From assembly GCA_937885075.1 (NCBI GenBank), contig CAKZYZ010000434.1:1-25898 (forward strand): DNA of 25,898 bases, in the 5' to 3' direction. The position numbers and the translations under genes were made by a program. A model generated the notes under the pieces. The model saw only the letters and a list, made by a program, of their open reading frames with translations. It was not told the DNA's origin and made no database searches. The DNA comes from an uncultured bacterium. Lineage in GTDB: Bacteria > Auribacterota > Erginobacteria > Erginobacterales > Erginobacteraceae. Numbering within the stretch: the first letter of the stretch is position 1; every line of letters begins with the position of its first letter. Below are positions 1 to 25,898 of the stretch, piece by piece.

Positions 1-74
1 CAATACCCCCTTGAGGGGTACGAAGAAAAACAAAGAAAACTATGGAATTTTCCTTTGTTTCTTCAAATTCCTTC

Positions 75-101
75 GTGAACTTCGTGTTCTTCGTGGTTTA
101 A
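75..101. repeat. 3 x 9-bp tandem repeat (cttcgtgNN)
   Basis: cttcgtgaa cttcgtgtt cttcgtggt; a related 'attcgtggactgcgaa' 16-mer occurs twice at 9417-9432 and 9464-9479. Confidence 0.7.
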
Positions 102-108
102 AAGGCTT

Positions 109-159
109 TTCGAGTAAGGTCAAGCTAAGTTCATCTTAGTGTCTTAGTGCCTTTGTGGC
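109..159. repeat. Partial/rearranged family A copy (tail then single arm)
   Basis: ttcgagtaaggtcaagctaagttc + atcttagtgtcttagtgcctttgtggc; tail motif 'ttcgagtaagRtcaagc' recurs at 17984-18000. Confidence 0.6.
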
Positions 160-163
160 GATT

Positions 164-1600
164 TTATTTAGAAAAAAATCCGATCCGGCTGAATATTGAC
201 CCCGCGCTGGAAATTATGCTCTTAAGATCGGCCCAGCTGTTTATGCTCAGGGCGGTCTGAATGATATAGGCCGGGCGAAAATAAAATTTCTTGTAGGCCC
301 GGACCCTCGCTTTCTCCGCCGCGTCCAGGGGGAACTCGGGTGTCTCGATCATCCCCAGGCAGGAAGAGAAATCCTCCCAGCTCTCATAACGGATCCAGCC
401 TTTCTCGGTTGTGGTATCAAAGAGTTCGGTTCCCGGATGCGGAATTGCCACCGCGAACTGGGCACTCCCCGGCTTGATCTTCTTCGCGAATTCTATCGTC
501 TCCCGGACCGTCTCCTCGGTCTCTCCCGGAAGCCCGAAGAGGAAGAATGCCTGAGTCCGGATCCCCACCTTCCGGGCCAGGCGGAACGCTTCCATCGCCT
601 TCTCGGTGGTGATGCCCTTCTTCATCAGCTTCAACATCCGGGGAGATCCCGATTCCACCCCGAACCGGATGTAACGGCAGCCGGCTTTCTTCATAGCCCG
701 CAGCACCTCTTCATCCATACTGTCTACCCGGCATTGGGAGATCCACTCAAACTTGATTCCCCGATCCACAATCAGCCGGCAAATTTCGAGCATCCGTTCC
801 TTATCCAGCGCCATCGAGTCATCATCAAAATATACTTCATCGATGCCGTACTTATTTACGCACTCCTCCAGTTCATCCACCACGTTCTTTGCCGTTCGGG
901 ACCGAAAATTATGCCCGTAGAGGGTATTGGGCCAGAGGCAGTATATACAGTGAAAGGGGCAGCCCCGGGAAGTAATCACCGTGGTGGGGTGCTTCCCCCG
1001 GAATGTCCCCTGGCGGTAGTTGGGGCTATCGACCAGATCCCGGGCCGGGAATGGAATCTCATCGAGATTCTCGATCACCGGACGATCCGGGTTGACTTTA
1101 ACCTCTCCATCTCTCCGCCAGGTCAGTCCAGGCACATCGGACCAATCCCGTCCTTCGGCCCGCGCCCGGACCAGATCCCGGACCGTGTAATCAAACTCAC
1201 CCCGGCAGATACCGTCCACCGAGGGATTTTCCGCCATGATCTCCTTGTGATAGACCGTGGGGTGAGAACCGATCAGGACCGTTTGGGTTGAAGGAGAGAC
1301 CTTCTTGACAGCGGCCGCGGATTGAAGATCAAAGTTGATCGAGGGGGTGGAGCACTCCAGAACCACTATATCCGGCCCGATCTCCTTTACCCGTTCCGCG
1401 AAATCTTCAATACTCAACTCCTCCAGGATCGCGTCCAGAAAACCGACCTCATATCCACTCTCCCGGACAATAGCCACCAGATAAGCGAGATAGATTGGAT
1501 ATTCAATAAATTTATCACTCCGCATATGCGGCCAGCGCACATCGGAGCGGGCCCCGAACCCTTCACCGGGCCAGGGGGGGTTTGTTATTAGTACTTTCAT
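164..1600 (-). CDS. B12-binding domain / radical SAM (class B) enzyme, probable methyltransferase-type
   Basis: 478 aa; N-terminal 'KVLITNPPW' cobalamin-binding-type beginning; canonical radical-SAM CxxxCxxC (RGCPFHCIYC); ATG at 1600; GGAG about 9 nt upstream. Confidence 0.85.
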   Translation of the reverse strand: MKVLITNPPWPGEGFGARSDVRWPHMRSDKFIEYPIYLAYLVAIVRESGYEVGFLDAILEELSIEDFAERVKEIGPDIVVLECSTPSINFDLQSAAAVKKVSPSTQTVLIGSHPTVYHKEIMAENPSVDGICRGEFDYTVRDLVRARAEGRDWSDVPGLTWRRDGEVKVNPDRPVIENLDEIPFPARDLVDSPNYRQGTFRGKHPTTVITSRGCPFHCIYCLWPNTLYGHNFRSRTAKNVVDELEECVNKYGIDEVYFDDDSMALDKERMLEICRLIVDRGIKFEWISQCRVDSMDEEVLRAMKKAGCRYIRFGVESGSPRMLKLMKKGITTEKAMEAFRLARKVGIRTQAFFLFGLPGETEETVRETIEFAKKIKPGSAQFAVAIPHPGTELFDTTTEKGWIRYESWEDFSSCLGMIETPEFPLDAAEKARVRAYKKFYFRPAYIIQTALSINSWADLKSIISSAGSIFSRIGFFSK

Positions 1601-1676
1601 AATATTTTGCTCCGCAAAATATTAGTTCTTTTTATTTTCATGACAATATTTATTTACTCCTAATTTTAATGAATCT

Positions 1677-1800
1677 GCCACAAAGGCACTAAGACACAAA
1701 GAAAAACTTAAGTAAGATTAAAAAACGTTGTTATTGCATCTTTAAATATTTTCTTTGTGTCTTAGTGTCTTTGTGGCAAAAAAGTTGCGAAGCTAAGTTC
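1677..1800. repeat. Repeat family A copy (inverted GCCACAAAGGCACTAAGACAC arms around AT-rich loop, plus AAAAAAGTTGCGAAGCTAAGTTC tail)
   Basis: Left arm 1677-1706 and right arm 1749-1777 are near-perfect reverse complements; tail 1778-1800; same architecture at 4953-5064. Confidence 0.85.
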
Positions 1801-2989
1801 TATACTCCTCACATAACTTCACAAACTCATCGGCTAAATGATCCCACCGGTATTTCTCCTCCACCAGCTTCATCCCCTCCTCTCCCATCTTTTTTGAGAG
1901 TTCACGGTCGTCGATCAGAGTTTCAATCTTGCTCACCAGGTCATCCTCATCACCCGGCTGATAAAAGAGACCGGTCTTGCCATCCTCAATCACTTCCTCC
2001 AGCGCGGGGAGACGCGGCGCCACCACCGAGAGCCCGCAGGCCCAGTATTCAAACTCCTTCAATGTTACCCTCCCCCGGGCCGAGACAATATCCGGGAGGA
2101 TGACCAGTCCGATATCCCCGGCCGACATATACCGGGATACCTCAGCCTGGGTCAGCCAGCCGGAAAAGAAAAACGCGTCGGTCAATCCGGCTTCACCCAC
2201 CATCTTCTTAAGGGCCGGGATAGCTGTCCCTTCTCCAATAATCCAGAATGCCGTCCCCGGGCGTCCGGCGCAAAGCTTTTTCGCGGCACCGACCAGCAGT
2301 TCCGGTCCATCCTGAGGATCGATCACCCCCTGGAAGATCAAGACCGTATCCTTCCCGGAAGCATGCTCCCGACGTAGATCATCACTCTGATATCTCTTAA
2401 AGATCCCCAGGTCAACCCCGTCACAGATTACTTCAATTCTATCCGCCGAGGTCCCGTACTCCAGAATGATCTCTTTCATGGCCCGGCTGATGGTGATGAT
2501 CCGGTCCGATCCCCGGATCGCGGCCGCCTCCATCTTCCGTCCGAACCGCTGGACCACTCTCAGCCATCCCCCGGAAGAATAGTCATCAAGATACTCGAAG
2601 AGGACATCGGTCAGATTCAAAACCAGAAGCGGTTTACACCCGGAGAATCTCGCTCCCAGAAGCGCCCCGTACCCGGCGATGGTATTATGCGGAACTATCA
2701 GATCGGGCTTGAATCTCCGGATCGCCCGGATCAGCCGGAACATATTAACCGGATGGGCCAGAAGATACTTCTTCATCTTATGCGGGTCCAGCCGGCTGAC
2801 TGTCTTCAGCCTGACGATCTCAGAACAACCGAGATACTCTTTCGCCTCTTCATCGCTGCTCGCGACCCCGCCCGCCACGCAGACCTCATGCCCCTGCCGG
2901 GCAAAACCCTGGATAATATTGGATATCCGGGGGCTTCCGCCCCCGGAAAGTGGATAGAGTTCTTCGAATATTGTAACCAGTACTTTCAT
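1793..2989 (-). CDS. Glycosyltransferase family 4 (GT-B, group 1)
   Basis: 398 aa; GT4-type two-domain layout; C-terminal E-x7-E-like region (GLVILPDIVSARGRVTLKEFEYWACGLSVV...EEVIEDGKTGL); ATG 2989 with GGAG upstream; stop codon TAG lies inside the tail of repeat A2. Confidence 0.85.
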   Translation of the reverse strand: MKVLVTIFEELYPLSGGGSPRISNIIQGFARQGHEVCVAGGVASSDEEAKEYLGCSEIVRLKTVSRLDPHKMKKYLLAHPVNMFRLIRAIRRFKPDLIVPHNTIAGYGALLGARFSGCKPLLVLNLTDVLFEYLDDYSSGGWLRVVQRFGRKMEAAAIRGSDRIITISRAMKEIILEYGTSADRIEVICDGVDLGIFKRYQSDDLRREHASGKDTVLIFQGVIDPQDGPELLVGAAKKLCAGRPGTAFWIIGEGTAIPALKKMVGEAGLTDAFFFSGWLTQAEVSRYMSAGDIGLVILPDIVSARGRVTLKEFEYWACGLSVVAPRLPALEEVIEDGKTGLFYQPGDEDDLVSKIETLIDDRELSKKMGEEGMKLVEEKYRWDHLADEFVKLCEEYRT

Positions 2990-3016
2990 TTTAATTGGCT
3001 CTCCTCGGTGGGGTTT

Positions 3017-3059
3017 TTATCCGACGGATCGGTCGGATCCGACCGATCCGACTGATTAA
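3017..3059. repeat. Repeat family C: GGATCC-centred REP-like palindrome
   Basis: ttatccgacggatcggtcggatcc|gaccgatccgactgattaa; imperfect at the outer end; immediately 3' of the acyltransferase gene (minus). Confidence 0.85.
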
Positions 3060-3097
3060 AAAAAACCGCCCCCCTCCATATTCACCGCCCTGGCCTG

Positions 3098-3856
3098 CTA
3101 TTCCCTGCTGTCCCCTGCCATGCCCTCCTCCTCCCTGCTCCGCACCACCCGCGCGGGAACTCCTACGGCTATCGCGTACTCCTCGATATCCTGGAGGACT
3201 ACCGCGCCGGCACCGATCACCGCTCCCTTCCCGATCGTAACTCCACCCCGGATAACGGCATGGGTCCCGATCCAGACATCTTCCCCGATCACTATCCGGC
3301 TGGGGGACCTCCCCTGGAACCGCATCGGTCGGGTCAGATCATCAAAGGTATGATCACCGCCGATAATCTCCACCTGGTTAGCGATCAGAGTATTATCCCC
3401 GATCTCTATATCTCCATAGCCATAGATAAATGAACCGGAGCCTAAGTTGATCTTCTCCCCGATCGTCACTTTCCCGAGTTGAGTCCGTATGGTCACCAAC
3501 CGGGCGATATGACTATCCGAACCTATGGTTATTCCCTCCGCCGATGCTCCGACATCAAAGAGACTTCCCTCCCCTAAAAAGACCCGGTCACCGAGGATAA
3601 GACTCTTTGGGTTATAGAAGCGAATATTCTTCTCCAGCAGGCATCTCCTTCCCAGGTCACCCAGTATCAACCGATAGATATAACCACGCAATACGGTTCC
3701 GGCGATGGTGGGAAAACAGGAGAAGAGAGTCAGCAGCAGTCCCTGCCCGAAAAACCGGCCCAGAGACCCGCTCCCATAAACTTTCTCCCGATAATGGCGA
3801 AAACCTTCCGAAAAACCACCGGCCGGGATCGTCCCTTCTCCGTCATAACCAGTCAT
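3098..3856 (-). CDS. Hexapeptide-repeat (left-handed beta-helix) acyl/acetyltransferase, WcaF/sugar O-acetyltransferase-like
   Basis: 252 aa; repeated [LIV]G-x4 hexapeptides (IGEDVWIGTHAVIRGGVTIGKGAVIGAGAVV); N-terminal hydrophobic segment; GAGGG RBS. Confidence 0.8.
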   Translation of the reverse strand: MTGYDGEGTIPAGGFSEGFRHYREKVYGSGSLGRFFGQGLLLTLFSCFPTIAGTVLRGYIYRLILGDLGRRCLLEKNIRFYNPKSLILGDRVFLGEGSLFDVGASAEGITIGSDSHIARLVTIRTQLGKVTIGEKINLGSGSFIYGYGDIEIGDNTLIANQVEIIGGDHTFDDLTRPMRFQGRSPSRIVIGEDVWIGTHAVIRGGVTIGKGAVIGAGAVVLQDIEEYAIAVGVPARVVRSREEEGMAGDSRE

Positions 3857-3881
3857 AAGAACTTATCCCTCTCTTTGTTCT

Positions 3882-3990
3882 GGCAACTTTGCCTCTAAGG
3901 AAAGCATGAAATCAGGAGAATTTAAAGTAATCCTCCTCCTGCCTTCCTGCTTTCCTTAGAGGTTATTGAAATTCCGAAGCAGTAAATTCA
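3882..3990. repeat. Repeat family B copy (imperfect hairpin cctctaaggaaagcaggaaatcaggag/ctcctcctgccttcctgctttccttagagg + tail ttattgaaattccgaagcagtaaatt)
   Basis: Shared about 100-bp element also at 12887-12995 and 21862-21992. Confidence 0.85.
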
Positions 3991-4943
3991 TCTTTGTGGT
4001 CTGCTTTTAATCTACAGGTTATCGCGACACAGATTAATTCCGCGACGACAGACCATATCCTGATAAAAACCGCAAAAATAGTACCATACCCGACCGGAAT
4101 CGAAAAGAGCGATTCTAAAAGAACCACGATAGAGAGTTCCGCTATCCCCAGACCGGCGGGCGTAAGAGGACTTATCGTTCCCAGTATCCATGATACCGCC
4201 ATTATCCCGGAGAATAACAGCCAGGAATATGCCGGAAGAGGGTGGGCCGCGAAGATATCACCGGGCAGAATAGTCAGAAGAAGATAGGTTGCCGCCCCTT
4301 TAATCAGCCAGAGACCGCACCAGTAGAGTACCAGCAGGAGGATGGAAGAGTAGCGGAGATTTACTCTCATCTCGATATGCTCAACCTTGCGGAGGAACCA
4401 GTTGAGAACCGGTTGAAAGATCCGGGGATGGAGCAGGGCCAACCCGATCGGGACCAGGGCTACCAGCAGAATGACCAGCCGGGAATCTCCGGCCACTTCC
4501 AGGCTGGGCCAGAGCGGCAATGTAGCAAGAGCGACCAATACCCCCGAGACCGCCAGGATTATCAGCATCGCGCCGACACTGGCGAGAGTTATCAACCGCG
4601 GCACCCCCTTCTTCTCCAGCATCACCACCCGACCGACCGCGGTCCAGATCTTGCCGGGGATATACTTGGCCAGTTCGCTCAGATAATATACCCGGAGAAT
4701 CTCCCCGTGTGAGACCACCTGCCCCAGGGCCCTCAGGATAAATCCCCACCCCAGGGCTACCAGGAGTCCTCCCCCCACCGTCATAATCATCGATAGAGCC
4801 AGGAGCCAGCGGTTGGCCTGAAGAAGACTCCGGGAAAATGCCTGCCAGTCAAGATCGATCAGGTTAAGAACCAGGAAATATCCGATCGCCCCCAGAATAA
4901 CAACCTGAACTATCCTGAAAATATAATGTTTGGTTATCTTCAT
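3963..4943 (-). CDS. Flippase-like / UPF0104 (lysylphosphatidylglycerol-synthase TM region-type) polytopic membrane protein
   Basis: 326 aa, about 8 predicted TM helices; N-terminus typical of this family; no SD; last 10 codons (KDEFTASEFQ) plus TAA are encoded by repeat B1 tail. Confidence 0.6.
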   Translation of the reverse strand: MKITKHYIFRIVQVVILGAIGYFLVLNLIDLDWQAFSRSLLQANRWLLALSMIMTVGGGLLVALGWGFILRALGQVVSHGEILRVYYLSELAKYIPGKIWTAVGRVVMLEKKGVPRLITLASVGAMLIILAVSGVLVALATLPLWPSLEVAGDSRLVILLVALVPIGLALLHPRIFQPVLNWFLRKVEHIEMRVNLRYSSILLLVLYWCGLWLIKGAATYLLLTILPGDIFAAHPLPAYSWLLFSGIMAVSWILGTISPLTPAGLGIAELSIVVLLESLFSIPVGYGTIFAVFIRIWSVVAELICVAITCRLKADHKDEFTASEFQ

Positions 4944-4952: not shown

Positions 4953-5064
4953 GCCACAAAGGAGCTAAGACACTAAGGAAAATAAGATACGTAGTTATTG
5001 CACCTATAATTCTTTTCTTTGTGTCTTCGTGTCTTTGTGGCAAAAAAACTGCGAAACTAAGTTC
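4953..5064. repeat. Repeat family A copy
   Basis: gccacaaaggagctaagacactaagg...ttctttgtgtcttcgtgtctttgtggc + aaaaaaactgcgaaactaagttc; about 90% identical to 1677-1800. Confidence 0.85.
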
Positions 5065-5147
5065 TTTTAACGTTCTTCTGCTTCAACGTCACTATTTTTC
5101 AACGTCAGTTATTTTAACGTTATAATTTAGCGCCAAGACGCTAAAGT
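5065..5147. repeat. Repeat family D: three to four ~16-bp-periodic TTTTCAACGTC direct repeats + E-type hairpin
   Basis: cttcaacgtcac tatttttcaacgtcag ttattttaacgtt ... aatttagcgccaagacgctaaagt; same arrangement at 18003-18091. Confidence 0.8.
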
Positions 5148-6826: not shown

Positions 6827-6850
6827 AAAATTAGCTCATTGCGCCGGGAA

Positions 6851-6898
6851 ATTATTATCCGACGGATCAGTCGGATCCGACTGATCCGTCGGATAATA
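6851..6898. repeat. Repeat family C: perfect 48-bp palindrome
   Basis: ttattatccgacggatcagtcggatcc|gactgatccgtcggataataa; 3' of the flotillin gene (minus). Confidence 0.9.
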
Positions 6899-6921
6899 AC
6901 TTCCCGAAAAAAGAGCCTGCG

Positions 6922-8379: not shown

Positions 8380-8395
8380 CTCTCGCCTCCCTTTT

Positions 8396-8432
8396 AAATT
8401 AGCTCCCTTCGGTCGCTAATTTAGTTTTAAAC
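8396..8432. repeat. Family E hairpin (aaattagc-loop-gctaattt) + conserved 'agttttaaac', 5' of flotillin RBS
   Basis: aaattagctcccttcggtcgctaattt agttttaaac; on the minus strand it lies 4 nt before GGGAGG. Confidence 0.75.
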
Positions 8433-10936: not shown

Positions 10937-10986
10937 TGTTAAAAACAGAACATAGCGCCTTCGGCCCAACCTCGTAGTGCAGGACT

Positions 10987-11056
10987 TCAGTCCTGCCCAA
11001 CGAAGGCAGGACTGAAGTCCTGTACTACGAGCTTATTGAAATTCCGAAACAGTAAA
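10987..11056. repeat. Family B-related element: 27-bp-stem perfect-ish hairpin + B tail (cttattgaaattccgaaacagtaaatt)
   Basis: ctcgtagtgcaggacttcagtcctgcc caacgaa ggcaggactgaagtcctgtactacgag (1 mismatch), then the B-family tail. Confidence 0.75.
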
Positions 11057-11083
11057 TTAGCGAACGAAGTGAGCTAATTTATT
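11057..11083. repeat. Family E hairpin overlapping the PPC gene stop
   Basis: aaattagcgaacgaagtgagctaattt. Confidence 0.65.
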
Positions 11084-11498: not shown

Positions 11499-11520
11499 TC
11501 TATCATTCTCCTTTTGGAAA

Positions 11521-11740
11521 AGTTGAAAGTGCCTTTTGAAAAAGTTGAAAGTGCCTAAAGTGCGTTTGAAAGAAGTGCCTTAAGTGCCTAAAGTGCCTTA
11601 AGTTGAAAGTTGTCGCGTTCGCCTGGCTTTTCTATCGCCCTCATCACGGCGCCTAGCATCGAGGTCCAAAGCGACAACTTTAGGCACTTATTCATCCGCC
11701 ATAGCTTTAGCGACGGAGGAAGCGCACTTTAGGCACTTAT
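11521..11740. repeat. Repeat family F: 9-bp-periodic [T/A]AAGTGCC array; 11-bp inverted repeat (aaagttgtcgc/gcgacaacttt) flanking a 53-bp core; two inverted CTTTAGGCACTTAT copies
   Basis: GTGCC at 11529, 11551, 11575, 11584, 11593; GGCAC at 11683 and 11732; IR at 11606-11616 and 11670-11680. Confidence 0.75.
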
Positions 11741-12880
11741 AACTTCCCTTCCTCCCCTCCCCCCTCCCCACGGCTCGAACGATTCACCTTTTAAGGCCGC
11801 CACAATCCGGGATGCGGCTTTCCCATCCCCGTAAGGATTTTGAGCCCGGGCCATCCGGTCATATTCCTCAGCATCATAGAGGAGCTTATCGAGACCAGCT
11901 TCTATCCTCCCGCGATGCGGTCCGACCAGCAGACAGGTCCCGGCCTCAACTCCCTCCGGACGCTCGGTTAGATCCCGGAGTACCAGAACCGGCTTGCCCA
12001 GAGCCGGTCCCTCTTCCTGGACACCGCCGGAATCGGAGAGAAGAAGCTTCGCGCCTTTCATGGCATGGCTGAAGGCGATATAATCCAGCGGTCCGCTCAG
12101 AACAATATTAGGTTTCCCCGCTAAGATCTCATGAGCAGGCTGAGAGACCTCAGGATTGGGATGGACCGGGTACCAGAGATATATCTCCCGATGGAGGGAA
12201 AGATAATCCCGGACTGTCTCAAATACCTCCCGGATCGGCCTACCGAATATCTCCCGCCGGTGACAGGTCATCAGGACATACGGTTGATCTGCAGGAACCG
12301 GGACAGGAGGCGGATCAGTCCGATTAAGAATATCAAAGAGCGAGTCAATTACGGTATTACCGGTTATAAAGACTGCCCCGCGGGATACCCCTTCCCGGAG
12401 GAGATTTTCGGCGGCGCTTTTGGTCGGAGCAAAGTTGTATTCAGCGGCCAATCCCGCGATCTTCCGATTAAACTCTTCCGGAAACGGAGCGGAGAGGTCT
12501 CCGGTCCGCAGGCCGGCCTCAATATGACCAAAAGAAACCTGGTTGTGAAAACAAGCGATAGATACCGCCATCACCGTGGTGGTATCGCCCTGGGCCAGTA
12601 CAATATCAACCGGATTGTCAGTAAGATATTCATTCACCCCGATCAGTACCCTCCCGGCCAGGGTATTTAAGCTCTGCCCGGGTCGCATCAAATCAAGATC
12701 AACATCAGGGACGATAGAGAAGACCTCCAGTATCTGGTCGAGCATATCCCGGTGCTGGGCCGTCGCCAGAACCCGGACCCGGAAAGTATCGGCCTCAGCC
12801 CGCAGAGCGGCGATAACCGGAGCGACCTTAATCGCTTCCGGGCGGGTCCCTACTACGCAGAGTATATCCTTAATTGTCAT
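11729..12880 (-). CDS. wecB: UDP-N-acetylglucosamine 2-epimerase (non-hydrolysing)
   Basis: VVGTRPEAIKVAP N-terminal motif and overall WecB/MnaA layout. Table start 12886 is GTG; the ATG at 12880 gives the typical N-terminus. About 20 extra C-terminal residues (GGGRGGR...) are encoded by a C-rich tract that runs into repeat F. Confidence 0.88.
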   Translation of the reverse strand: MTIKDILCVVGTRPEAIKVAPVIAALRAEADTFRVRVLATAQHRDMLDQILEVFSIVPDVDLDLMRPGQSLNTLAGRVLIGVNEYLTDNPVDIVLAQGDTTTVMAVSIACFHNQVSFGHIEAGLRTGDLSAPFPEEFNRKIAGLAAEYNFAPTKSAAENLLREGVSRGAVFITGNTVIDSLFDILNRTDPPPVPVPADQPYVLMTCHRREIFGRPIREVFETVRDYLSLHREIYLWYPVHPNPEVSQPAHEILAGKPNIVLSGPLDYIAFSHAMKGAKLLLSDSGGVQEEGPALGKPVLVLRDLTERPEGVEAGTCLLVGPHRGRIEAGLDKLLYDAEEYDRMARAQNPYGDGKAASRIVAALKGESFEPWGGGRGGREVISA

Positions 12881-12886
12881 TAGCAC

Positions 12887-12995
12887 ATAGCCCTCGCCTT
12901 ACTCGGGCAACTTTCCCTCTGAGGAAAGCAGGAAATCAGGAGAATTTAAAATACTCTCTCCTCCTGCCTTCCTGCTTTCCTTAGGTGTTATTGTC
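12887..12995. repeat. Repeat family B copy (with 'tagccctcg...cgggcaacttt' head; tail diverged)
   Basis: Alignment to 21862-21992 and 3882-3990; the head contributes the putative wecB RBS. Confidence 0.8.
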
Positions 12996-13017
12996 CCGGT
13001 AATATCAATTAAGACAA

Positions 13018-13041
13018 CCGGGATCCCGAAGAATTTCGGGG
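13018..13041. repeat. Family G: CGGGATCCCG palindrome + CCCGAAG-N-TTCGGG hairpin
   Basis: ccgggatcccgaagaatttcgggg; related copy at 22117-22152. Confidence 0.65.
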
Positions 13042-13078
13042 AAATTCCGGAATAGGAACTTGCACCTTCTATTCAGGT

Positions 13079-13131
13079 GTCGTTATCGGACGGATCGGTC
13101 GGATCCGACCGATCCGTCCGATAACAATAAC
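13079..13131. repeat. Repeat family C: perfect 44-bp palindrome with imperfect extension
   Basis: gttatcggacggatcggtcggatcc|gaccgatccgtccgataac; 3' of the amidohydrolase gene (minus). Confidence 0.9.
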
Positions 13132-13155
13132 GCCCCGCCTTGTTAACCGCGCGTC

Positions 13156-13197
13156 GCTTGCCGCTTACTGCTTACCGCTTACCGCTTACTGCTTACC
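13156..13197. repeat. 7-bp tandem microsatellite (GCTTACY) x6
   Basis: gcttgcc gcttact gcttacc gcttacc gcttact gcttacc; immediately 3' of the amidohydrolase stop. Confidence 0.85.
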
Positions 13198-13204
13198 GAT
13201 CACC

Positions 13205-14696: not shown

Positions 14697-14730
14697 AAAT
14701 CAGCGGGTTCTAGCTGATTTAGTTTTGAAC
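14697..14730. repeat. Family E hairpin with compensatory stem change + 'agttttgaac', 5' of amidohydrolase RBS
   Basis: aaatCagcgggttctagctGatttagttttgaac; the T->C / A->G change preserves pairing relative to copy 8396. Confidence 0.75.
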
Positions 14731-14897
14731 CAAGTCCAACATAATTATGTCAGAACAGTGCCAATAGTTATTTTAATAATTCCGGCGATACTTTTATTCG
14801 CCTTATGACCGCAAAAACAATGCTACATAAATACCTTAATATATTCAATAGTTTGTTGCCGCTTTCTTCGGGCAAACGGATAAATCGAAAAAATTTA

Positions 14898-17809: not shown

Positions 17810-17983
17810 TCTTTCCCTCCTGAATCTTTCGAGAGACTGACACCTGAACTCGCGCGCCATCCCGGCCCAACCCGGTAAACACCCCCGGTCCTCCGAAAAA
17901 ACAGTCAATAAATTAACATCACCTCCCTGTTGTCTAAACTTGTGGTTTTGAATTTCTTAGAAGAATAAATCATGAAATGCCCT

Positions 17984-18091
17984 TTCGAGTAAGATCAAGC
18001 AATATTTTTTTAACGTCTTTTTTCTTCAACATCCTTATTTTTCAACGTCGGTTATCTTTAACGTTTAAATTAGTGCCGGAGGTGCTAATTT
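17984..18091. repeat. Repeat family D copy (with A-like 'ttcgagtaagatcaagc' head)
   Basis: ttttttaacgtc ttttttcttcaacatcc ttatttttcaacgtcgg ttatctttaacgtt + aaattagtgccggaggtgctaattt. Confidence 0.8.
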
Positions 18092-18092
18092 A

Positions 18093-18983: not shown

Positions 18984-20059
18984 TATGGTTCACCTGTCTT
19001 TAGCTTGATTTTATAACGAAGGAGCACCTGACCCCCGATCACGAAGATCAGGATTAAGCCCTGAAAGAGCCCGGTAATCCCTGAACTCAGATCCGCTATT
19101 ATCTGCAGGGTGTTTCCCCCGGTGATAATACCGCCGAAGAGAAAAGAAGAAATTATCAGGACCAGGGAATTCATGCCGGCTAAATAAGCGACAATGAGCC
19201 CGGAAAAGCCGTAACGGGCGTCCGGCGGAGTAAAGTCATTGACCCTCAGGCTATGCTGAAGACCGGAAACCTCGCCAAATCCGGCCAGACCGGCCAGGCC
19301 GCCGCCGATGAACATGGTAAGCAGGATAATCTTCATCGAACTTATCCCGGAATATTTGGCCGCCTGAGGATTGGAGCCGACCGTTCTAATCTCATAACCC
19401 GTCTTGGTCTTCCGCAGCCAGTAAAAGATAATAATCGCGGCGACGATCCCGATCACAACAGTATAATGAATTCTGGTTCCGGCGATTACCGGCATCCAGG
19501 CCGCGGGAACAATTTCGGATGTCATGGGATAGGCGATACCTCCTCCGCGCCGCCAGGGGTAGGCCGAAAGATGATTGACCAGCAGGATAGCCACATAGTT
19601 AAACATCATCGTGGTCACCACTTCATTGGCGGACCATTTAGCCTTGAGAAATCCGCAGATCCCTCCCAGCAGCCCCCCTCCGATAAAAGCGGCAATGATC
19701 ATGAGCGGGATCAGGAGCGGAGCGGGGAGGTCGGGAAAACTATACGCCACCCAGGCCGACATTACCGCGCCCATATGAAGCTGTCCCACCCCCCCGATAT
19801 TCCATAAGCCGGCCTTGCGGGGAACCAGAAACGCCAGACCGCAAAGGAGAAAAGGGATCATTTTTATCCCGGTATTGGATAATCCCCGCACCGAGCCGAA
19901 CGCCGCCATAACAATATCTTTATAGGCGGAAATAGGATCCGCTCCCGAGGCCAGAAGGACAAAGGAAAATGCCACCAGAGCCAGGGCTACGGAAATGAGC
20001 ACCGACCTGATATTGTTGGCCGCGGAAATATCCGTTCTTTTTTGCAGGAAAAACTTCAC
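18983..20059 (-). CDS. ABC transporter permease (BMP/nucleoside type, YufP/NupB-like)
   Basis: 358 aa polytopic; GTG start overlapping ATPase stop (GTGA); GGAG 7 nt upstream. Confidence 0.85.
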   Translation of the reverse strand: MKFFLQKRTDISAANNIRSVLISVALALVAFSFVLLASGADPISAYKDIVMAAFGSVRGLSNTGIKMIPFLLCGLAFLVPRKAGLWNIGGVGQLHMGAVMSAWVAYSFPDLPAPLLIPLMIIAAFIGGGLLGGICGFLKAKWSANEVVTTMMFNYVAILLVNHLSAYPWRRGGGIAYPMTSEIVPAAWMPVIAGTRIHYTVVIGIVAAIIIFYWLRKTKTGYEIRTVGSNPQAAKYSGISSMKIILLTMFIGGGLAGLAGFGEVSGLQHSLRVNDFTPPDARYGFSGLIVAYLAGMNSLVLIISSFLFGGIITGGNTLQIIADLSSGITGLFQGLILIFVIGGQVLLRYKIKLKTGEP

Positions 20060-21612
20060 AATTTAACTCCAGCCATCCAGGCCCCCAAATTATCTTTTAC
20101 CGCCTCCGCCGCCGGAACCATTCCGGTGATCCTTCCTTCATAGAAAACCGCGATCCGGTCACTGACCGACATTATCTCATCCAGATCTTCGGAGATCAGG
20201 AGGATGGCGCATTTCTCCAGCTTGAGAGCAAGCAACTGATTTTGAATAAACTCCGCCGCTCCAACATCCAGACCGTGAGTCGGCAGGTTGGTGATCAGCA
20301 ACCGGGGGTGGTGGGAAATTTCCCGGGCCAGAATAAGTTTCTGGAGGTTGCCGCCCGAGAGATGGATGGCCGGGGTTTCCTTGCTCGGGGTCCGAATATT
20401 ATACCGGGGGATCATTTCTTCCGCGAAGCGTTCGACCGCTTTATGATCGAGACCCCAGCGGCGGGAAAATGGTTTTTCGAAATATTTATCCAGCACCAGA
20501 TTATCGGCCACGGAAAAATCAGGAACCACACCTATCATATACTCTTCCGGAATATGACCGATACCTTTCTCTATTCTCCGGCGGGTAGATAGGCCGGTGA
20601 TATCTTCCCCGGAGAAAATAATCTCTCCCGATAATACCCCGCGCAACCCGGCGATAACCTCGGCCAACTCCGATTGACCGTTTCCCGCCACCCCGGCAAT
20701 CCCCAGGATCTCACTCTCCCGGATGGTCAGGGAGATGCCCTTTAAAGCCATAATCCCCTTGTCATTTAGGGCCCGCAGATTTTTTATCTCCAGGACCGGA
20801 TCACCGGGAGCTATTTCCGGTTTTTTTAGTTGGAAGAGCACACTCTTCCCCACCATCTTCCGGGCCAGATCCCGGGGATTGGTCTGGTCGGTCCTGATCT
20901 CCTCCACCACTCTCCCCCGCCGGAGAACCGTCACCCGATTGCTGGTGGCTATTACCTCCGGAAGTTTATGAGTAATGAAAGGAACCACAGCCATCTCCTG
21001 GGTCGCCATCCGACGGAGCAGAAGCGAGAGCTGCTCCGCTTCGGCCGGGGTAAGGATTGAGGTTGGTTCATCCAGCACTAAAATCTGAGCGTTCCGATAG
21101 AGCATCTTCAGAATCTCAACCCGCTGTTTCTCCCCGGCGGAAAGCTGCCAGATGCGCGCGGAGGGATCGACCTGAAGGGAATATTTCTCGGAAAGCTTTT
21201 CTATCCTTTCCACCACCCTCTTCATTCTTCCGATGATCCCCCCTTCCCTGAGGCCCAGGATAATGTTTTCCGCTACGGTCAGGGAAGGCACCAGCTTGAA
21301 GCGCTGATGAACCATCCCGATTCCCAGCGCGATCGCGTCGAGGGGCGATCTGATGACGACTTTCTTTCCCCTCAGATAGATTTCTCCCTCATCGGGCTGG
21401 TATAAGCCGTAGATAATATTCATCAGGGTGGTCTTTCCGGCCCCGTTTTCACCGAGCAGAGCATGGACCTCACCGGCTTTGACGTCGAAGTTGATATGAT
21501 CATTGGCCAGGACACCCGGGAAACGCTTGGTGATATTCCTTAACTCCAGGACCATATCTCCCGGCTTACAGCCTTGCCGAAAATCGATATCGATTGTCTT
21601 TTCTTCCCTCAT
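20056..21612 (-). CDS. ABC transporter ATP-binding protein with two fused NBDs (nucleoside/sugar type)
   Basis: Two Walker A (GENGAGKTT, GVAGNGQSE), two signature motifs (LSAGEKQR, LSGGNLQK). Start uncertain: 21612 (no SD, hairpin abuts) or 21555 (MVLELRNITKRF, typical N-terminus). Confidence 0.9.
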   Translation of the reverse strand: MREEKTIDIDFRQGCKPGDMVLELRNITKRFPGVLANDHINFDVKAGEVHALLGENGAGKTTLMNIIYGLYQPDEGEIYLRGKKVVIRSPLDAIALGIGMVHQRFKLVPSLTVAENIILGLREGGIIGRMKRVVERIEKLSEKYSLQVDPSARIWQLSAGEKQRVEILKMLYRNAQILVLDEPTSILTPAEAEQLSLLLRRMATQEMAVVPFITHKLPEVIATSNRVTVLRRGRVVEEIRTDQTNPRDLARKMVGKSVLFQLKKPEIAPGDPVLEIKNLRALNDKGIMALKGISLTIRESEILGIAGVAGNGQSELAEVIAGLRGVLSGEIIFSGEDITGLSTRRRIEKGIGHIPEEYMIGVVPDFSVADNLVLDKYFEKPFSRRWGLDHKAVERFAEEMIPRYNIRTPSKETPAIHLSGGNLQKLILAREISHHPRLLITNLPTHGLDVGAAEFIQNQLLALKLEKCAILLISEDLDEIMSVSDRIAVFYEGRITGMVPAAEAVKDNLGAWMAGVKL

Positions 21613-21615: not shown

Positions 21616-21660
21616 AAATTAGTGCCGGCGGCGCTAATTCAGTGGAAATGCACTAAAATT
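21616..21660. repeat. Two adjacent E-type near-palindromes abutting the ABC ATPase ATG
   Basis: aaattagtgccggcggcgctaatt and tgcactaaaattagcacc. Confidence 0.6.
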
Positions 21661-21861
21661 AGCACCTCTATATTTTTGTATTATATATTATTATCTTGAT
21701 TTTTTCAACAATACTTACAATCGCGAGAAAATCAATGCCTATATATATTTTATTTTACAATATACTTTTATCGCCATTTTACAAATATTTTGCTCGCGGT
21801 GATAATCTCTGAATCTAACCCTTGCGGGAGTGGGCCACATCTGCTATTCCATAATAGAACT

Positions 21862-21992
21862 TAGCCCTCGGCTTTGCCTCGGGCAACTTTTCCTCTAAGG
21901 AGAGCAGGAAATCAGGAAAATTAAAATACTCCCTCCTCCTGCCTTCCTGCTTTCCTTAGGGGTTATTGAAATTCCGAAGCAGGAAATTAGTT
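21862..21992. repeat. Repeat family B copy (head + hairpin + tail)
   Basis: tagccctcggctttgcctcgggcaacttttcctctaaggagagcaggaaatcagg...ttccttaggggttattgaaattccgaagcaggaaatt. Confidence 0.85.
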
Positions 21993-22087
21993 CGCTACTT
22001 TATCCGGTCCCGCACATAGTTTATGTGAGGGACAATAAACAGCGGATTGTTTTTTTCTTTTAATCAGCATAATCCGCTTTATCCGCG

Positions 22088-22110
22088 GTTAAAAAAGTTG
22101 CGAAGCTAAG
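22088..22110. repeat. Solo family-A tail (aaaaaagttgcgaagctaagttc)
   Basis: Identical 23-mer to 1778-1800, with no arms. Confidence 0.6.
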
Positions 22111-22116
22111 TTCCTG

Positions 22117-22152
22117 CTTCGGAATTTTCCCGAAATACTTCGGGATCCCGAG
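22117..22152. repeat. Family G copy
   Basis: cttcggaattttcccgaaatacttcgggatcccgag. Confidence 0.65.
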
Positions 22153-22191
22153 TTGTTTAATATTAAGTCTCGGGACAATAAATGAGATAAT

Positions 22192-22248
22192 ACTGGAGTA
22201 CTGGAGTGATGGGGGCGCCTTCCCAACACTCCAATACTCCAATATTCC
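22192..22248. promoter_or_regulatory. Imperfect inverted repeat with internal 8-mer duplications (ctggagtactggagtg ... cactccaatactccaatattccag), candidate operator
   Basis: Abuts the putative -35; in the divergent region between the nucleoside-transporter operon and the deaminase gene. Confidence 0.4.
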
Positions 22249-22254
22249 AGAACA

Positions 22255-22283
22255 GTTGCCCGGAGCAAAGCGACGGGCTATGT
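22255..22283 (+). promoter_or_regulatory. Candidate promoter of the cytosine-deaminase-like gene
   Basis: TTGCCC-N17-TATGTT directly upstream of the GGAG RBS. Confidence 0.35.
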
Positions 22284-22305
22284 TCTAAAAGGAGAAGAAG
22301 AATTG

Positions 22306-23532: not shown

Positions 23533-23561
23533 TAAAACAACGGATTAATTTGTTGTTTTAT
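23533..23561. terminator. AT-rich hairpin (ataaaacaac ... gttgttttat) between the convergent deaminase and FAD-oxidoreductase genes
   Basis: 10-bp stem; stop codons of both genes flank it. Confidence 0.4.
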
Positions 23562-24691
23562 TAGAGGATCTTCTCCACCAGGTTCTTCACGTACCTCCCG
23601 ATCGCCGGGGCGGCGGTCAGGCCGGGGGACTCGATGCCGATCAGGTTTATCAGTCCCGGCAGGCCCCGGTCTTCTTCGTGATGGATAACGAAGTCCCGCT
23701 CCGCCTCTCCCTTCCGGTAGAGCTTGGGGCGGATCCCGGCCATATCAGGGGAGAGATTATCTCTCTGCAATTCCGGAAGATACTTTTCCGCGCCGCGGAA
23801 GAAATCCTCCCGATGCTGTTCGTCCACGGTATAGTCGACCTCATCCACATAGAAAGCGCTCGGACCGATCTTCATCCCGCCCTGAAGATCCACCACCGTG
23901 TGGAGGCCCAGACTGATCTCGGTCGGGGGGGGATAAACCAGATTGCTGAATAAGGCCCCCTCCGTCCCCCCGACCCGGAAGTACTCGCCCTTGCAGGGAT
24001 AGATCCTGTAACCGGCGGCGGCGGTATCGATCCCGGCCATTATCGCCACTCTCTCCGCCCCCAATCCGGCCGCGTTCACGACTACCCGGCTGAAAAACTC
24101 ATACTCCTCCCCGTCGGCATCACGGATCACTACCCGATAACCTTCCCCCTTCTTTTTGAGGGCGATAAGTTCACAGTTATACGCGAATGTCGTATCGCAG
24201 GAGGCCTTCTTCTCCAGGTAGGCCATCAGGCGATGGCTGTCGATAATACCGGTCCCGGAGGACCAGAGGCCCCCTTCCGCCCGCACCCGGGGCTCAATCG
24301 CCCGCACCTCGCCGCGGGAAAGAAGACGAAGCCCCTCAACTCCGTTCTCTTCCGCCCGCTCCTTCAGCGCCGCGATAACCGGGAGATCTCCCTTCTCGAT
24401 AGCGATGATAAGCTTACCGCATTTACGGAACGGAATATCCACCCGGGGACAGAGTTCGTAAAGAATCCGGCGCCCTTCGGTACAGAGCCGGGTCTTATGA
24501 AAATCCCTTGAGTAATAGATCCCGGCGTGGATCACCTCGCTGTTCCGGCTACTCGACTCCCGGCCGAACCCGTCATGCCGTTCCACCGCGATAATCTCCC
24601 TCCCCCCCCCGCTCAGCTCCGCCGCGACCGCCAGCCCCACCACCCCCACCCCAATAATAGCAACATCAACCTTTTCCAATTTATTCTCCAT
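23561..24691 (-). CDS. FAD-dependent oxidoreductase (L-2-hydroxyglutarate oxidase/LhgO-like)
   Basis: N-terminal dinucleotide-binding GxGxxG (VAIIGVGVVGLAVA); 376 aa; no SD. Confidence 0.7.
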   Translation of the reverse strand: MENKLEKVDVAIIGVGVVGLAVAAELSGGGREIIAVERHDGFGRESSSRNSEVIHAGIYYSRDFHKTRLCTEGRRILYELCPRVDIPFRKCGKLIIAIEKGDLPVIAALKERAEENGVEGLRLLSRGEVRAIEPRVRAEGGLWSSGTGIIDSHRLMAYLEKKASCDTTFAYNCELIALKKKGEGYRVVIRDADGEEYEFFSRVVVNAAGLGAERVAIMAGIDTAAAGYRIYPCKGEYFRVGGTEGALFSNLVYPPPTEISLGLHTVVDLQGGMKIGPSAFYVDEVDYTVDEQHREDFFRGAEKYLPELQRDNLSPDMAGIRPKLYRKGEAERDFVIHHEEDRGLPGLINLIGIESPGLTAAPAIGRYVKNLVEKIL

Positions 24692-24696
24692 TTTTA

Positions 24697-24829
24697 GGGG
24701 TCAAGTCTACTTATTGCTTAACTTTATATTTAAATTCTTCCCTGATCGGGTATATTTATAGGGGTCAAGTCTACTCATTGTTTAACTTTATATTTGAATT
24801 CCTTCCCTGATCGGGTATATATTTATCGT
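24697..24829. repeat. Two tandem ~64-bp direct repeats between the FAD-oxidoreductase and RayT-like genes
   Basis: ggggtcaagtctacttattgcttaactttatatttaaattcttccctgatcgggtatatttata (24697-24760), then a second copy (24761-~24829) with 4 substitutions and small indels. Confidence 0.85.
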
Positions 24830-24878
24830 TCGATTATATTAACAATTAAAACCAATATATCAAGGAGTCTTAAATACG

Positions 24879-25808
24879 ATGTCTCGACCCCTGAGAATTC
24901 AGTACCCCGGTGCCTGGTACCATATAATGAACCGTGGCGGCCATCATCGAAATATTTTCAGCAATGAGAATGATCGACTGGAATTTTTACGATTGCTAAA
25001 GGAAACGATTGAGATGTGGGAGATAGAGGTGCATGCTTATTCATTGCTGGATACGCATTATCATCTTCTAATCCATACACCCCTGGGCAACCTTTCCCGG
25101 GCAATGAGGCATATCGGCGGAGTTTATACTCAACGTTATAACATTCGTCATGATACTGATGGTCAACTATTTCGGGGAAGATATAAATCAATCCTGGTAG
25201 ATAAAGATAATTATCTGCTGGAAGTAGTGAGATATATTCACCTGCAAGGAGTTCGGGCAGGGATAATAAGTCAGCCTGAAGATGATATCTGGTCATCTTA
25301 TCGGGCATATTTATTCCAGCAGGATAGCTTGACCTGGTTAAGCACCGGGAAAATACTCAGTATTTTTAACAGGAACCGCTCGGCCGCAAGAAAACGACTG
25401 ATTGAATTTATCAGCAATGGTATCTCTCCCGGTATCAAAGAATTCTATTCCAAAGAAAGGCTATCTCCAGTGTTGGGTTCTAAAGAGTTTATTAAAAATA
25501 TCAAGGATACTTACATAATTCCGGAAGCGCCTTTCTATGAAATCCCGGATAGTAAAGTCAAAAATGGCCACAGCACAATAACTATGATAAATAAAATAGT
25601 CTGTGAGCAATATCTCATCTCACAAAAATCCTTGCTGGAAGTATCCAGGGGAATTCACAATGAACCACGGGATATCGCGGTATATTTAGCCCGGCAAGAG
25701 GGGAAATATTCTTTGAATGAAATTGCTGATAGTTACGGTTTCTCAAGTTATTCCGGAGTTAATTCAACCATCAGGAGAATTAAACATCGCTTAAAAACAG
25801 ACAAGAAC
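24879..25808 (+). CDS. RayT-like (COG1943) HUH Y1 tyrosine transposase fused to DnaA-C-like HTH; 3'-truncated by adapter at contig end
   Basis: N-terminus 'RPLRIQYPGAWYHIMNRG' and HUH motif 'THYHLLIHTP' typical of IS200-like/REP-associated Y1 transposases. C-terminal 'IAVYLARQEGKYSLNEIADSYGFSSYSGV' resembles the DnaA C-terminal HTH. AAGGAG RBS. ORF continues into adapter-derived sequence (25809 onward), so the true end is unknown. Confidence 0.7.
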
Positions 25809-25885
25809 AGATCGGAAGAGCGTCGTGTAGGGAAAGAGTGTAGATCTCGGTGGTCGCCGGAGCATTAAAAAAAAAAAAGAAAAAA
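25809..25885. other. Sequencing artefact: Illumina TruSeq universal adapter (reverse complement) followed by poly-A
   Basis: 25809-25859 = AGATCGGAAGAGCGTCGTGTAGGGAAAGAGTGTAGATCTCGGTGGTCGCCG, a 51/51 match to the revcomp of the TruSeq universal adapter. Then 'gagcatt' (adapter has TATCATT), then A12 G A6. Confidence 0.93.
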
Positions 25886-25898
25886 CTGAATGTTAGAT

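Follow-up and report, generated by a model that had tools for sequence, protein, structure and literature searches.

Modular palindromic repeats at gene boundaries, and a TIRYT gene, in an uncultivated relative of Candidatus Euphemobacter

Results and discussion

The stretch of DNA analysed here, referred to as the window, is the whole of the 25,898-nt contig CAKZYZ010000434.1; it contains 20 genes, predominantly on the minus strand, and the gaps between these genes carry the palindromic repeats that are the subject of this work. We place the source of the window, an uncultivated bacterium, as a relative of the lineage of Candidatus Euphemobacter (Ca. Auribacterota, PVC group), because the closest named relatives of its proteins (72-83% identity) come from ‘PVC group bacterium’ and ‘Candidatus Euphemobacter frigidus’. 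Its genes code for cell-envelope sugar enzymes, an SPFH protein, a Bmp-type ABC transporter, amidohydrolases and a DAO oxidoreductase, and a gene for a Y1 transposase-like protein lies at the right-hand end. The GC content is 52% and intergenic DNA makes up 14% of the window (3652 intergenic versus 22156 genic bases). Comparison with contigs of relatives and of other assemblies, which are given locus labels of the type L001, showed that the repeats are a modular, lineage-wide set of elements, that their cassettes differ at orthologous sites, that some of their hairpins change in place by whole words and that one of their conserved boxes faces start codons.

An earlier note on this DNA had named repeat families A to G, and these were found at, or within a few bases of, the positions it had assigned to them. 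When copies were required to lie >300 nt apart and to match by blastn-short at E<1e-3, dispersed repeats covered 765 of the 3652 intergenic bases (21%) and 38 of the 22156 genic bases (0.17%). Approximately 13 of the 18 gaps contained a family member. Intergenic space is strongly enriched in repeats, but with 21% of its bases covered under this strict criterion it is not saturated with them as had been claimed. Twelve of the 18 gaps folded at z < -2 relative to dinucleotide shuffles, the mean folding z being -5.0 for gaps versus -0.2 for length-matched coding controls, and about 27 of the 42 Tandem Repeats Finder arrays (counted by row), chiefly of period 7-9, fell in the intergenic 14%. Identity between copies within families was 70-95%, lower than the 85-100% reported in the note. 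The compensatory stem changes that it described were indeed seen in family C, with G..C replaced by A..T and C..G by G..C so that the palindrome is preserved. Stems were near-perfectly Watson-Crick paired whichever strand was read, and G-U pairs did not favour the transcribed one; this lack of asymmetry fits a palindrome process acting at the level of DNA, and a function in RNA only was rejected on the same grounds. Searching Rfam (E up to 1) gave no match at gathering score, and the five sub-threshold miRNA/snoRNA hits are spurious, merely reflecting long hairpins. Four patterns looked for in viral collections gave no match.

Modular organisation of the repeats

Lining up all copies, including those at 17 metagenome loci that match the 24-nt arm of family B, revealed the families to be pieces of one plan, namely a HEAD box, an exchangeable long hairpin cassette and a TAIL box. 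In HEAD, a small GC hairpin or just TTCG separates GAACTTAGC from the GCAACTTTT that comes after it. TAIL is GTTATTGAAATTCCGAAGCAG, beyond which there is usually a further hairpin, HEAD-like or of E type (AAATTAGC..GCTAATTT). The middle slot is filled by at least four cassettes that are unrelated to one another: the B hairpin, a hairpin of CGGATT words, a hairpin of ACTGGAG words with G, and another type in L031. Dimers of GTAG-tagged repetitive extragenic palindromes (REPs) also directly precede a TAIL box. The arms of the cassettes are made of tandem 7-9-nt words. Family A was recognised as a cassette joined to a short form of HEAD, and family G as paired small hairpins within TAIL (in the window, L026 and L013), while complete units chain head to tail (in tandem in L016) and also nest within one another. 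A miniature inverted-repeat transposable element would have target-site duplications and terminal inverted repeats like those of an autonomous insertion sequence; here neither end of the unit (GAACTTAGC... or ...CCGAAGCAG) is an inverted copy of the other, and no parent insertion sequence was found.

The elements lie just after stop codons, with HEAD in reverse usually 1-30 nt before start codons. The earlier note had placed most of them at the 3' ends of genes, a description that needs correcting for family B, copies of which abut start codons. Nine of 26 HEAD matches are followed by an open reading frame (ORF) of at least 80 aa that starts 1-29 nt beyond the GCTAAGTTC end, the remaining matches being mostly internal to mosaics or at locus ends. 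Where an ATG directly follows HEAD, the 3' half of its small hairpin (GAGGGC) stands at Shine-Dalgarno distance. The short HEAD (1784-1800 and 22097-22113) holds GCGAAGC, which we take to be an exceptionally stable DNA mini-hairpin, with the direct repeat AAGTT on both sides; at least four assemblies that differ in GC content, among them L006, L008, L011 and L001, share its 19-mer without a change.

Several familiar identities for these sequences were considered and set aside. An integron attC or gene-cassette origin was rejected because the hairpin-adjacent GGGCAAC... and ...GTTATTG fit neither RYYYAAC nor GTTRRRY and do not pair; an integrase is moreover absent from the genes of the window, and gene order is conserved with relatives. 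Reading HEAD as a sigma-70 or sigma-54 promoter was rejected by inspection, its hexamers being wrongly spaced (in the A-type HEAD, TTGCGA and TAAGTT stand only 3 nt apart); reading it as the start of a leaderless mRNA would leave just 3 nt between TAAGTT and the ATG.

Individual elements of the window

The elements are described here by family, with the strand in brackets wherever one was assigned. Copy 1 of family A (1676..1800, +) is a hairpin with a 30-bp stem composed of the 8-nt words GCCACAAAG/GCACTAAG/ACACAAAG; it is followed by an A-type HEAD box in reverse (AAAAAAGTTGCGAAGCTAAGTTC, 1778-1800), which overlaps the stop codon of the glycosyltransferase (GT4) gene. Copy 2 (4953..5064, +) is 87% identical to copy 1 and ends in a variant HEAD box (5042-5064), and a half copy comprising one arm (123..159, +) is preceded by AAGCTAAGTTC. 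Beyond it, at 1..100, lies a hairpin of CACGAAG words truncated by the contig start; the arm that is cut off can be seen in L029, a contig of the same strain, and the orthologous site of L037 has the hairpin as well. A further small hairpin, AATATTTTGC GGA GCAAAATATT (1605-1630), touches the ATG of the radical SAM gene, which has no Shine-Dalgarno sequence; it is kept in L037 (6290-6330), and L036 has a normal Shine-Dalgarno sequence at that place.

Family B shows the full plan of HEAD, a 27-bp hairpin and TAIL in copy 1 (3859..3985, +), where the reversed HEAD ends 2 nt before the hexapeptide transferase ATG (3856) and TAIL overlaps the last codons of the gene at 3963-4943. In copy 2 (12885..12995, +) HEAD abuts the ATG (12880) of the UDP-GlcNAc 2-epimerase gene. 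The start listed for this ORF (11729-12886) is a GTG at 12886; the ATG at 12880 is the true start, as confirmed by an identical 383-aa database protein and by the register with the other copies of family B. Copy 3 (21857..21985, +) has no adjoining start codon and lies upstream of the top sigma-70-like match of the window, at 21708-21680 on the minus strand (TTGAAA, 17 nt, TATAAT; 11/12). This site falls between copy 3 and the ABC transporter operon and is plausible as a predicted real promoter.

Family C comprises three palindromes, at 3010..3073 (ATCCGACGGATCGGTCGGATCCGACCGATCC...), at 6845..6906, which is loopless with 31-nt arms that are 97% complementary, and at 13076..13139, with 22-nt arms that are 100% complementary. 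Copy 1 of family D (5062..5147, +) contains four AACGTT/CAACGT words about 16 nt apart and a small E-type hairpin at its end, and copy 2 (18005..18091, +) likewise includes an E hairpin (18067-18090) and has related copies in L001 and L013. Other E hairpins are situated directly in front of the Band7 gene, 5' of its Shine-Dalgarno sequence and start ATG (8395..8423), directly 3' of the stop codon of the PCC gene (11053..11081), 5' of an amidohydrolase Shine-Dalgarno sequence together with a conserved AGTTTTGAACCAA box (14697..14733), and touching the start codon of the ABC ATPase gene (21616..21639). In comparison with L001 and L005, about 90 bp are inserted at the third of these. The sequence at the end of E hairpins is TAATTT, which is only a partial U-tract. 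A strict regular expression for E hairpins recovered 6 only and was dropped for counting.

Family F, which had been listed among the dispersed families, proved to be a single locus with internal repeats (11499..11750), a nested hairpin of AAGTGCCTT/AAGTTGAAA words; the epimerase ORF extends 10 codons beyond its orthologues into this element. Copy 1 of family G (12988..13061, +) is a pair of small hairpins within the TAIL of the second B copy, between GTTATTG and AAATTCCG, and copy 2 (22108..22181, -) is inverted, 77% identical to copy 1 and likewise inside TAIL. Just 3' of the amidohydrolase stop codon is an array of 6.3 copies of the heptamer CGCTTAC (GGTAAGC in gene sense; 13155..13198). Two further composite elements were delimited towards the right of the window. 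The first is a CGGATT-word hairpin with an A-type HEAD in reverse at 22095-22113 (22040..22113, +); the second is an ACTGGAG-word hairpin with a B-type HEAD in reverse at 22253-22285 (22185..22285, +), 17 nt 5' of the cytosine-deaminase-like start at 22303.

One element is of a different kind. At 10971..11052 two copies of CTCGTAG-TGCAGGACTTCAGTCCTGCC are arranged tail to tail around a 7-nt spacer, followed by a TAIL box at 11033-11052. REPs are defined as imperfect palindromes of 20-40 bp with an unpaired GTAG or CGTC tag, a stem of 5-13 bp and a loop of 2-20 nt. The dimer proper (10971-11031), with its unpaired GTAG tag, 8-bp stem and 2-nt loop, falls within this published definition and is the sole genuine REP dimer of the window. 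Families A-G fall outside it: their stems are 22-31 bp long, their units measure 45-130 nt, and they carry neither a GTAG nor a CGTC tag. The region 10987-11056 had been considered related to family B, with which it has only the 20-nt TAIL in common. The 27-mer of the dimer was also found in L012 and a different GTAG dimer in L036, each beside a TAIL box.

Some further features of the neighbourhood were noticed. The 360-aa hypothetical protein encoded by ORF 15033-16115 contains three 120-nt (40-aa) tandem repeats at 15752-16084, and its single gene in the window corresponds to three tandem paralogues in L001 (2419-5753). Between YjbQ and DAO the window (16700-21612) carries a four-gene Bmp/ABC transporter operon and a cytosine-deaminase-like gene, and L001 (6663-8582) has two Lcl_C-domain genes instead, so gene content has been replaced within otherwise syntenic flanks. 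In L039, from the relative E. frigidus, a DDE_Tnp_1 (IS4/IS5-type) transposase gene (13788-15212) is located just 3' of the syntenic glycosyltransferase cluster; the window has no such gene.

Orthologous gaps and wider distribution

Syntenic contigs of relatives were obtained by exact-protein look-ups. In species with orthologous proteins that are 82-93% identical, the same gap often holds another cassette or none at all, which bears out the variation in presence and absence that had been anticipated. The gap between the hexapeptide transferase and GT4 genes holds a C palindrome in the window and in L036 (92%), a hairpin of GCAACCG words with a HEAD abutting the ATG in L037 (86%), and TAIL, G-type hairpins, further hairpins and a short HEAD in L039 (E. 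frigidus, 82%). The GCAACCG-word family of L037 recurs at a different gap in L001. Between the GT4 and radical SAM genes the window has 192 bp with the A hairpin, in L036 the same flanks enclose 125 bp comprising a GTAG REP dimer and a TAIL-like box, L037 has 215 bp of other sequence and L039 has 8 bp. The B and G elements of the amidohydrolase-epimerase gap are both missing from L030, L031 and L001, and the PCC-nuclease (EEP) gap, which in the window measures 109 bp and houses the REP dimer, is reduced to 30 bp in L031, the two genes overlapping in L030.

Other elements have been inherited in place. The first C palindrome is shared with L036 (92% GT4 identity), the third with L030, the CACGAAG hairpin with L037 and family F with L030 and L031. 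The earlier note had named identical elements at orthologous sites as a sign of ancient immobile terminators that would refute its reading, and with these four elements that refuting condition applies in part. Family F forms a graded series: its orthologue in L030 is an ordinary terminator with an 11-bp stem followed by T6, that in L031 is longer, and in the window it has become a complex of about 230 bp. Steps of whole words were also observed elsewhere, the heptamer CGCTTAC being present as a single copy in L030 and L031 versus about 6 copies in the window, and the B arm in L015, L020 and L028 lacking exactly one 8-nt word.

An exact scan of a genome collection for a 19-nt HEAD word returned 6 loci, the window itself not being among them. 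Five came from four metagenome-assembled genomes (MAGs; Ca. Euphemobacter, PVC group and ‘uncultured bacterium’) with 1-2 each, one lay in coding-like sequence of an Armatimonadetes MAG and is probably a chance match, and the sixth lay between genes of a MAG that bears the label Oxalobacter. Scanning 241 million metagenome records for the 24-nt B arm gave 17 loci representing about 11 distinct sites. The same modules thus occur at unrelated sites in several Auribacterota/PVC assemblies, and are not a local duplication. The note is supported in regarding them as lineage-restricted palindromic repeats dispersed between genes; their kind is that of REPs or bacterial interspersed mosaic elements (BIMEs). 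For example, the CGGATT-HEAD element of the window (52% GC) is 93% identical to a copy in L006 (62% GC) and 89% identical to one in L001, both at non-orthologous sites. A long hairpin of B type without HEAD or TAIL was found in L014 (2441-2502), L017 (744-837) and L021 (194-275). These contigs come from other metagenomes and have 55-72% GC; their arms are identical over 24-28 nt and nothing else is common to the window, which suggests horizontal spread of the bare B hairpin. A distinct intergenic repeat was noticed in L005 (5154-5467), where tandem units of about 45 nt (GTGTCATTGCGAACGCAGTGAAGCAATCTCAC...) are followed by an inverted partner; it differs in sequence, so the style recurs with lineage-specific sequences.

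The Y1 gene

The gene at 24879..25808 (+) encodes a Y1_Tnp HUH domain (Pfam, E = 3.7e-11) and a helix-turn-helix (HTH) of the DnaA domain-IV type (Pfam Bac_DnaA_C, E = 3.1e-8), and its 3' end is cut by the contig end. The ORF and its domains are real, as the earlier note had it, except that the last 19 codons are adapter. Positions 25809..25898 (+) are Illumina TruSeq adapter and poly-A junk, a non-genomic contig end: the TruSeq universal adapter matches 25809-25866 with 2 mismatches in 58 nt and poly-A comes after it. The final 19 residues of the annotated protein (RSEERRVGKECRSRWSPEH) are translated adapter, and the end of the terminal ORF is accordingly artificial. The catalytic residues are retained, H60-Y61-H62 and Y119 being invariant across 18 homologues. 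A profile of the protein family matches DnaA domain IV structures (E = 8.6e-14), and the combination of Y1 with DnaA_C is common, with 5,985 database proteins at E <= 0.001. Against NCBIfam NF047646 (REP_Tyr_transpos) the protein scored 49.8 bits, below the curated cut-off of 80.

This fusion has been described. Quentin et al. (2018, PMC6006769) assign proteins with Y1 and Bac_DnaA_C to TnpA_REP subclass 2.1.2, near whose genes they found no REP-like sequences, and equate this subclass with the TIRYTs of Di Nocera et al. (2013, PMC3733652), which are flanked by terminal inverted repeats with a common GGGGWSAS. The gene fits this description. In L001 and L005, where the protein is 82% identical, it lies between inverted copies of TAGGGGTCAAGTCTACTT(A/T)TTGCTTAACTT, a 30-bp repeat (TAGGGGTCAAGTC...) located at 9870-9899 and, as the reverse complement, at 11021-11050 in L001 and at 2031-2058 and 3177-3204 in L005, the copies matching at 29/30 positions. 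These long end repeats start with TAGGGGTCAA, matching 7/8 positions of the GGGGWSAS motif (here GGGGTCAA), with A instead of S at the last position. The window keeps only the upstream repeat, in dimeric form: a tandem duplication of 64 nt x 2 (24692..24820, +) contains the terminal inverted repeat TAGGGGTCAAGTCTACTTATTGCTTAACTT at 24695 and 24759, and the downstream side has been lost to the contig end. A further departure from published TIRYTs is that the downstream repeat (L001 11014-11050; L005 3168-3204) lies within the first 12 codons of the PMT_2/TPR gene (MAEVKQKVDLTPIL). As for the upstream repeat, it directly adjoins the start codon of DAO, which is read from the opposite strand.

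The locus is syntenic in three species, in the order DAO - TIRYT - PMT_2/TPR. Its 30-bp repeat was found nowhere else in about 300 kb of the lineage and is unlike families A-G, so the inverted pair flanking the gene, which the earlier note had proposed to check against its repeat families, is private to the gene. A profile search of six-frame ORFs of all loci detected no Y1 homologue apart from the syntenic TIRYT. Two apparent similarities of the end repeat were discarded, one to family D, which was significant against mononucleotide shuffles and was lost in a multiple alignment of all copies, and an 11-nt match to TAIL (p about 0.03), which was too weak. The Y1 gene is a vertically inherited TIRYT (subclass 2.1 of Quentin et al.) and not a REP-associated tyrosine transposase (RAYT), and on present evidence it is not the mobiliser of the repeats; the RayT link made in the note is unsupported.

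Origin of the repeats

On balance we judge it probable, though by no means assured, that the repeats are a BIME/BOX-like mosaic of non-autonomous palindromic elements that undergo turnover, grow word by word in place and have a role at gene boundaries. Whole cassettes are occasionally gained, lost or replaced there, a turnover directly visible in the orthologous gaps; gain may proceed by insertion or recombination at the shared HEAD or E boundary hairpin. The step differences between relatives would be explained by slippage of the 7-9-nt words, through which hairpins could grow and shrink in place, followed by re-homogenisation of the two arms through intrastrand template switching, a process known to homogenise and expand the arms of inverted repeats (PMC13100816, PMC5941160, PMC7202029). 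Because they are located after stops, with HEAD before starts, the elements are probably transcribed and may act as gene-boundary hairpins, which would shield the 3' end of the upstream cistron or bring about termination there, and the small hairpin of HEAD would hold the GAGGG Shine-Dalgarno sequence of the downstream cistron.

A number of observations weigh against this account. Copy number in relatives looks low to modest in the exact-word and profile scans, and a profile search of 62 kb from relatives not chosen by repeats found no copy of family A or B. Functional constraint, and not mobility, could account for the very high identity that some modules show between species. The elements are bounded by neither a clean target-site duplication nor a terminal inverted repeat, no empty HEAD-TAIL site was found among the aligned copies, and GAACTTAGC often recurs right after TAIL, either as a duplication or as the next unit. 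Nor did strain comparison, which used L029 and three other near-identical contig sets, catch an insertion event: strain pairs at 99.66-100% identity show no indel or substitution in a repeat, although the sole pair with differences, the window and L029, spans 3.9 kb (99.66% identical over 3,873 bases, with 13/13 differences in coding sequence). These comparisons give no sign of the activity that the earlier note had inferred. Intrinsic terminators have a short loop on a GC-rich stem of 5-20 bp, with a U-tract immediately following; a consensus scan of the window for them found as many sites as chance predicts, none of which lies at families A-D or at G. Ordinary terminators are present at 16574-16605 and 23533-23560; a consensus promoter scan was likewise at chance level and leaves the elements unexplained.

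Part of this evidence would suit a reading in which nothing is mobile and the repeats are vertically inherited cis signals, such as terminators, 5' leaders or protein-binding arrays, whose HEAD, TAIL and E sequences are required by a lineage-specific factor and whose differences between species arose by local divergence and deletion. The elements that relatives keep in the same gaps, the fixed position of HEAD and E with respect to start codons, the conserved GCTA(A/G)(A/G)TTATA-ATG at the epimerase start of L001, L030 and L031, the absence of strain polymorphism, the low copy number in relatives and the fact that some modules are better conserved than the adjoining coding sequence all agree with it. 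We nevertheless consider it unlikely, if still to be reckoned with, for unrelated cassettes share one gap across species (the A hairpin versus a GTAG REP dimer), and the three contents of the hexapeptide transferase-GT4 gap (C versus GCAACCG hairpin versus TAIL, G and hairpins) are more than divergence alone can produce. Identical cassettes also stand before functionally unrelated genes in both orientations, units are tandem and nested, and the same B arm appears in contigs of 55-72% GC that are otherwise unlike the window. Mobilisation by a canonical RAYT encoded elsewhere in the genome, acting on the GTAG REP dimers with HEAD and TAIL as a preferred palindromic target for REPs and hairpins, appears rather improbable. 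In its favour are the dimers of the window, L012 and L036, which match the published features of GTAG REPs and always lie beside TAIL, and the documented insertion of REPs into specific palindromic targets (Anabaena GTAG-15 and Thermomicrobium GTAG-23); yet there are only three such sites in about 300 kb, the profile search of six-frame ORFs found no RAYT in any locus, and most cassettes (A, B, CGGATT and ACTGGAG) bear no GTAG or CGTC tag.

It is very improbable that the TIRYT mobilises families A-G in trans as in a REPIN system. Its HUH protein, with HUH and Tyr residues intact, is encoded on the same contig as hairpins of the kind that HUH enzymes use as substrates, some TIRYT end repeats form moderately abundant families (Di Nocera et al., PMC3733652), and the binding of 9-bp boxes by the DnaA HTH, set beside arms of 7-9-nt words, is suggestive and nothing more. 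Set against these points are the private end repeat found solely beside the gene, its failed alignment with family D, the synteny of the gene in three species, the lack of Y1 homologues at loci ascertained through the repeats, the score below the NCBIfam RAYT cut-off and membership of a subclass without REPs (Quentin et al., PMC6006769). That the repeats are an assembly artefact or chimera has a practically negligible chance of being correct. The adapter at the contig end does betray imperfect read trimming, but the independent assembly L029 (ENA DRR093004, PRJDB5792) is 99.66% identical over 1-3873 with the same repeats, and relatives sampled elsewhere and put together with other assemblers again show the gene order and several of the elements. 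A bolder extension of the mosaic account, which we regard as quite doubtful, would make HEAD-cassette-TAIL a dedicated docking system in which the HEAD and TAIL boundary boxes define a docking site at gene starts and ends, unrelated hairpins are exchanged between them and elongate in steps of 7-9-nt words by slippage and arm homogenisation, and some cassettes cross phyla; the catalyst might then be an HUH enzyme that acts on single strands and recognises the tandem words through a DnaA-type HTH.

Relation to known repeat systems

Within the mosaic account, the closest parallels to the way in which the system appears to work are the BIMEs of E. coli and the BOX elements of pneumococci, a REP component being present in addition; by sequence it is a member of neither. 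In common with BIMEs, REPs and REPINs the elements are intergenic, palindromic and dispersed, form hairpin mosaics with short conserved linkers, are located after stops between co-directional genes and vary in occupancy among relatives, and one unit of the window is a genuine GTAG-tagged REP dimer. They differ in that most hairpins have stems of 22-31 bp (versus 5-13 bp), are untagged and consist of 7-9-nt words, in that the linkers HEAD and TAIL are conserved rather than the palindrome, and in that no flanked RAYT was found; REP/REPIN systems moreover have tens to hundreds of copies per genome, and the indirect evidence from relatives of the window points to low counts. Pneumococcal BOX elements have the composition boxA - boxB(n) - boxC, form strong intergenic hairpins and are not known to encode a transposase. 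Their three-part modular plan with conserved ends and a variable middle is thus shared with the repeats of the window, whereas sequence and phylum are unrelated, the middle is filled here by unrelated interchangeable hairpins, and HEAD faces start codons. Cyanobacterial STRR heptamer arrays, with small dispersed repeats nested in hairpins, are said to have been described by Elhai et al. in 2008. They reportedly resemble the present repeats in their short intergenic tandem words of heptamer type and in the nesting of small repeats in larger palindromes; the phylum and sequences are different, and the words here form hairpin arms framed by HEAD and TAIL. Lastly, in the evolution of quasipalindromes by template switching (PMC13100816, PMC5941160, PMC7202029) paired changes likewise keep the arms complementary and inverted repeats lengthen at a fixed site over evolutionary time. 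Growth proceeds here in steps of 7-9-nt words on both arms, reaching stems of 30-50 bp, which points to slippage coupled to arm homogenisation. We found no description of this combination in the literature, and none of the mosaic HEAD-cassette-TAIL repeats; the earlier note, which did not recognise the system as described, was thus half right, the Y1-DnaA_C fusion being known.

Conclusions

Dispersed palindromic repeats such as REPs, BIMEs, BOX elements and miniature inverted-repeat transposable elements are known chiefly from cultivated Proteobacteria, Firmicutes and Cyanobacteria, and the repeats reported here provide a dissectable example from a candidate phylum accessible only through metagenomes. 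Unless the elements prove to be mobile or regulatory, the practical importance is modest. The analysis also warns against a widespread habit in annotation, for finding a ‘RayT-like’ gene next to palindromic repeats does not amount to evidence of a REPIN system, the gene in this case being a TIRYT with end repeats of its own; if a canonical RAYT exists in this genome, the GTAG REP dimers would be its substrates. The plan of the elements is unusual in that the linkers are conserved and the palindromes between them are interchangeable and grow by discrete words, and the orthologues of family F offer a natural time course from an ordinary terminator to a long palindrome.

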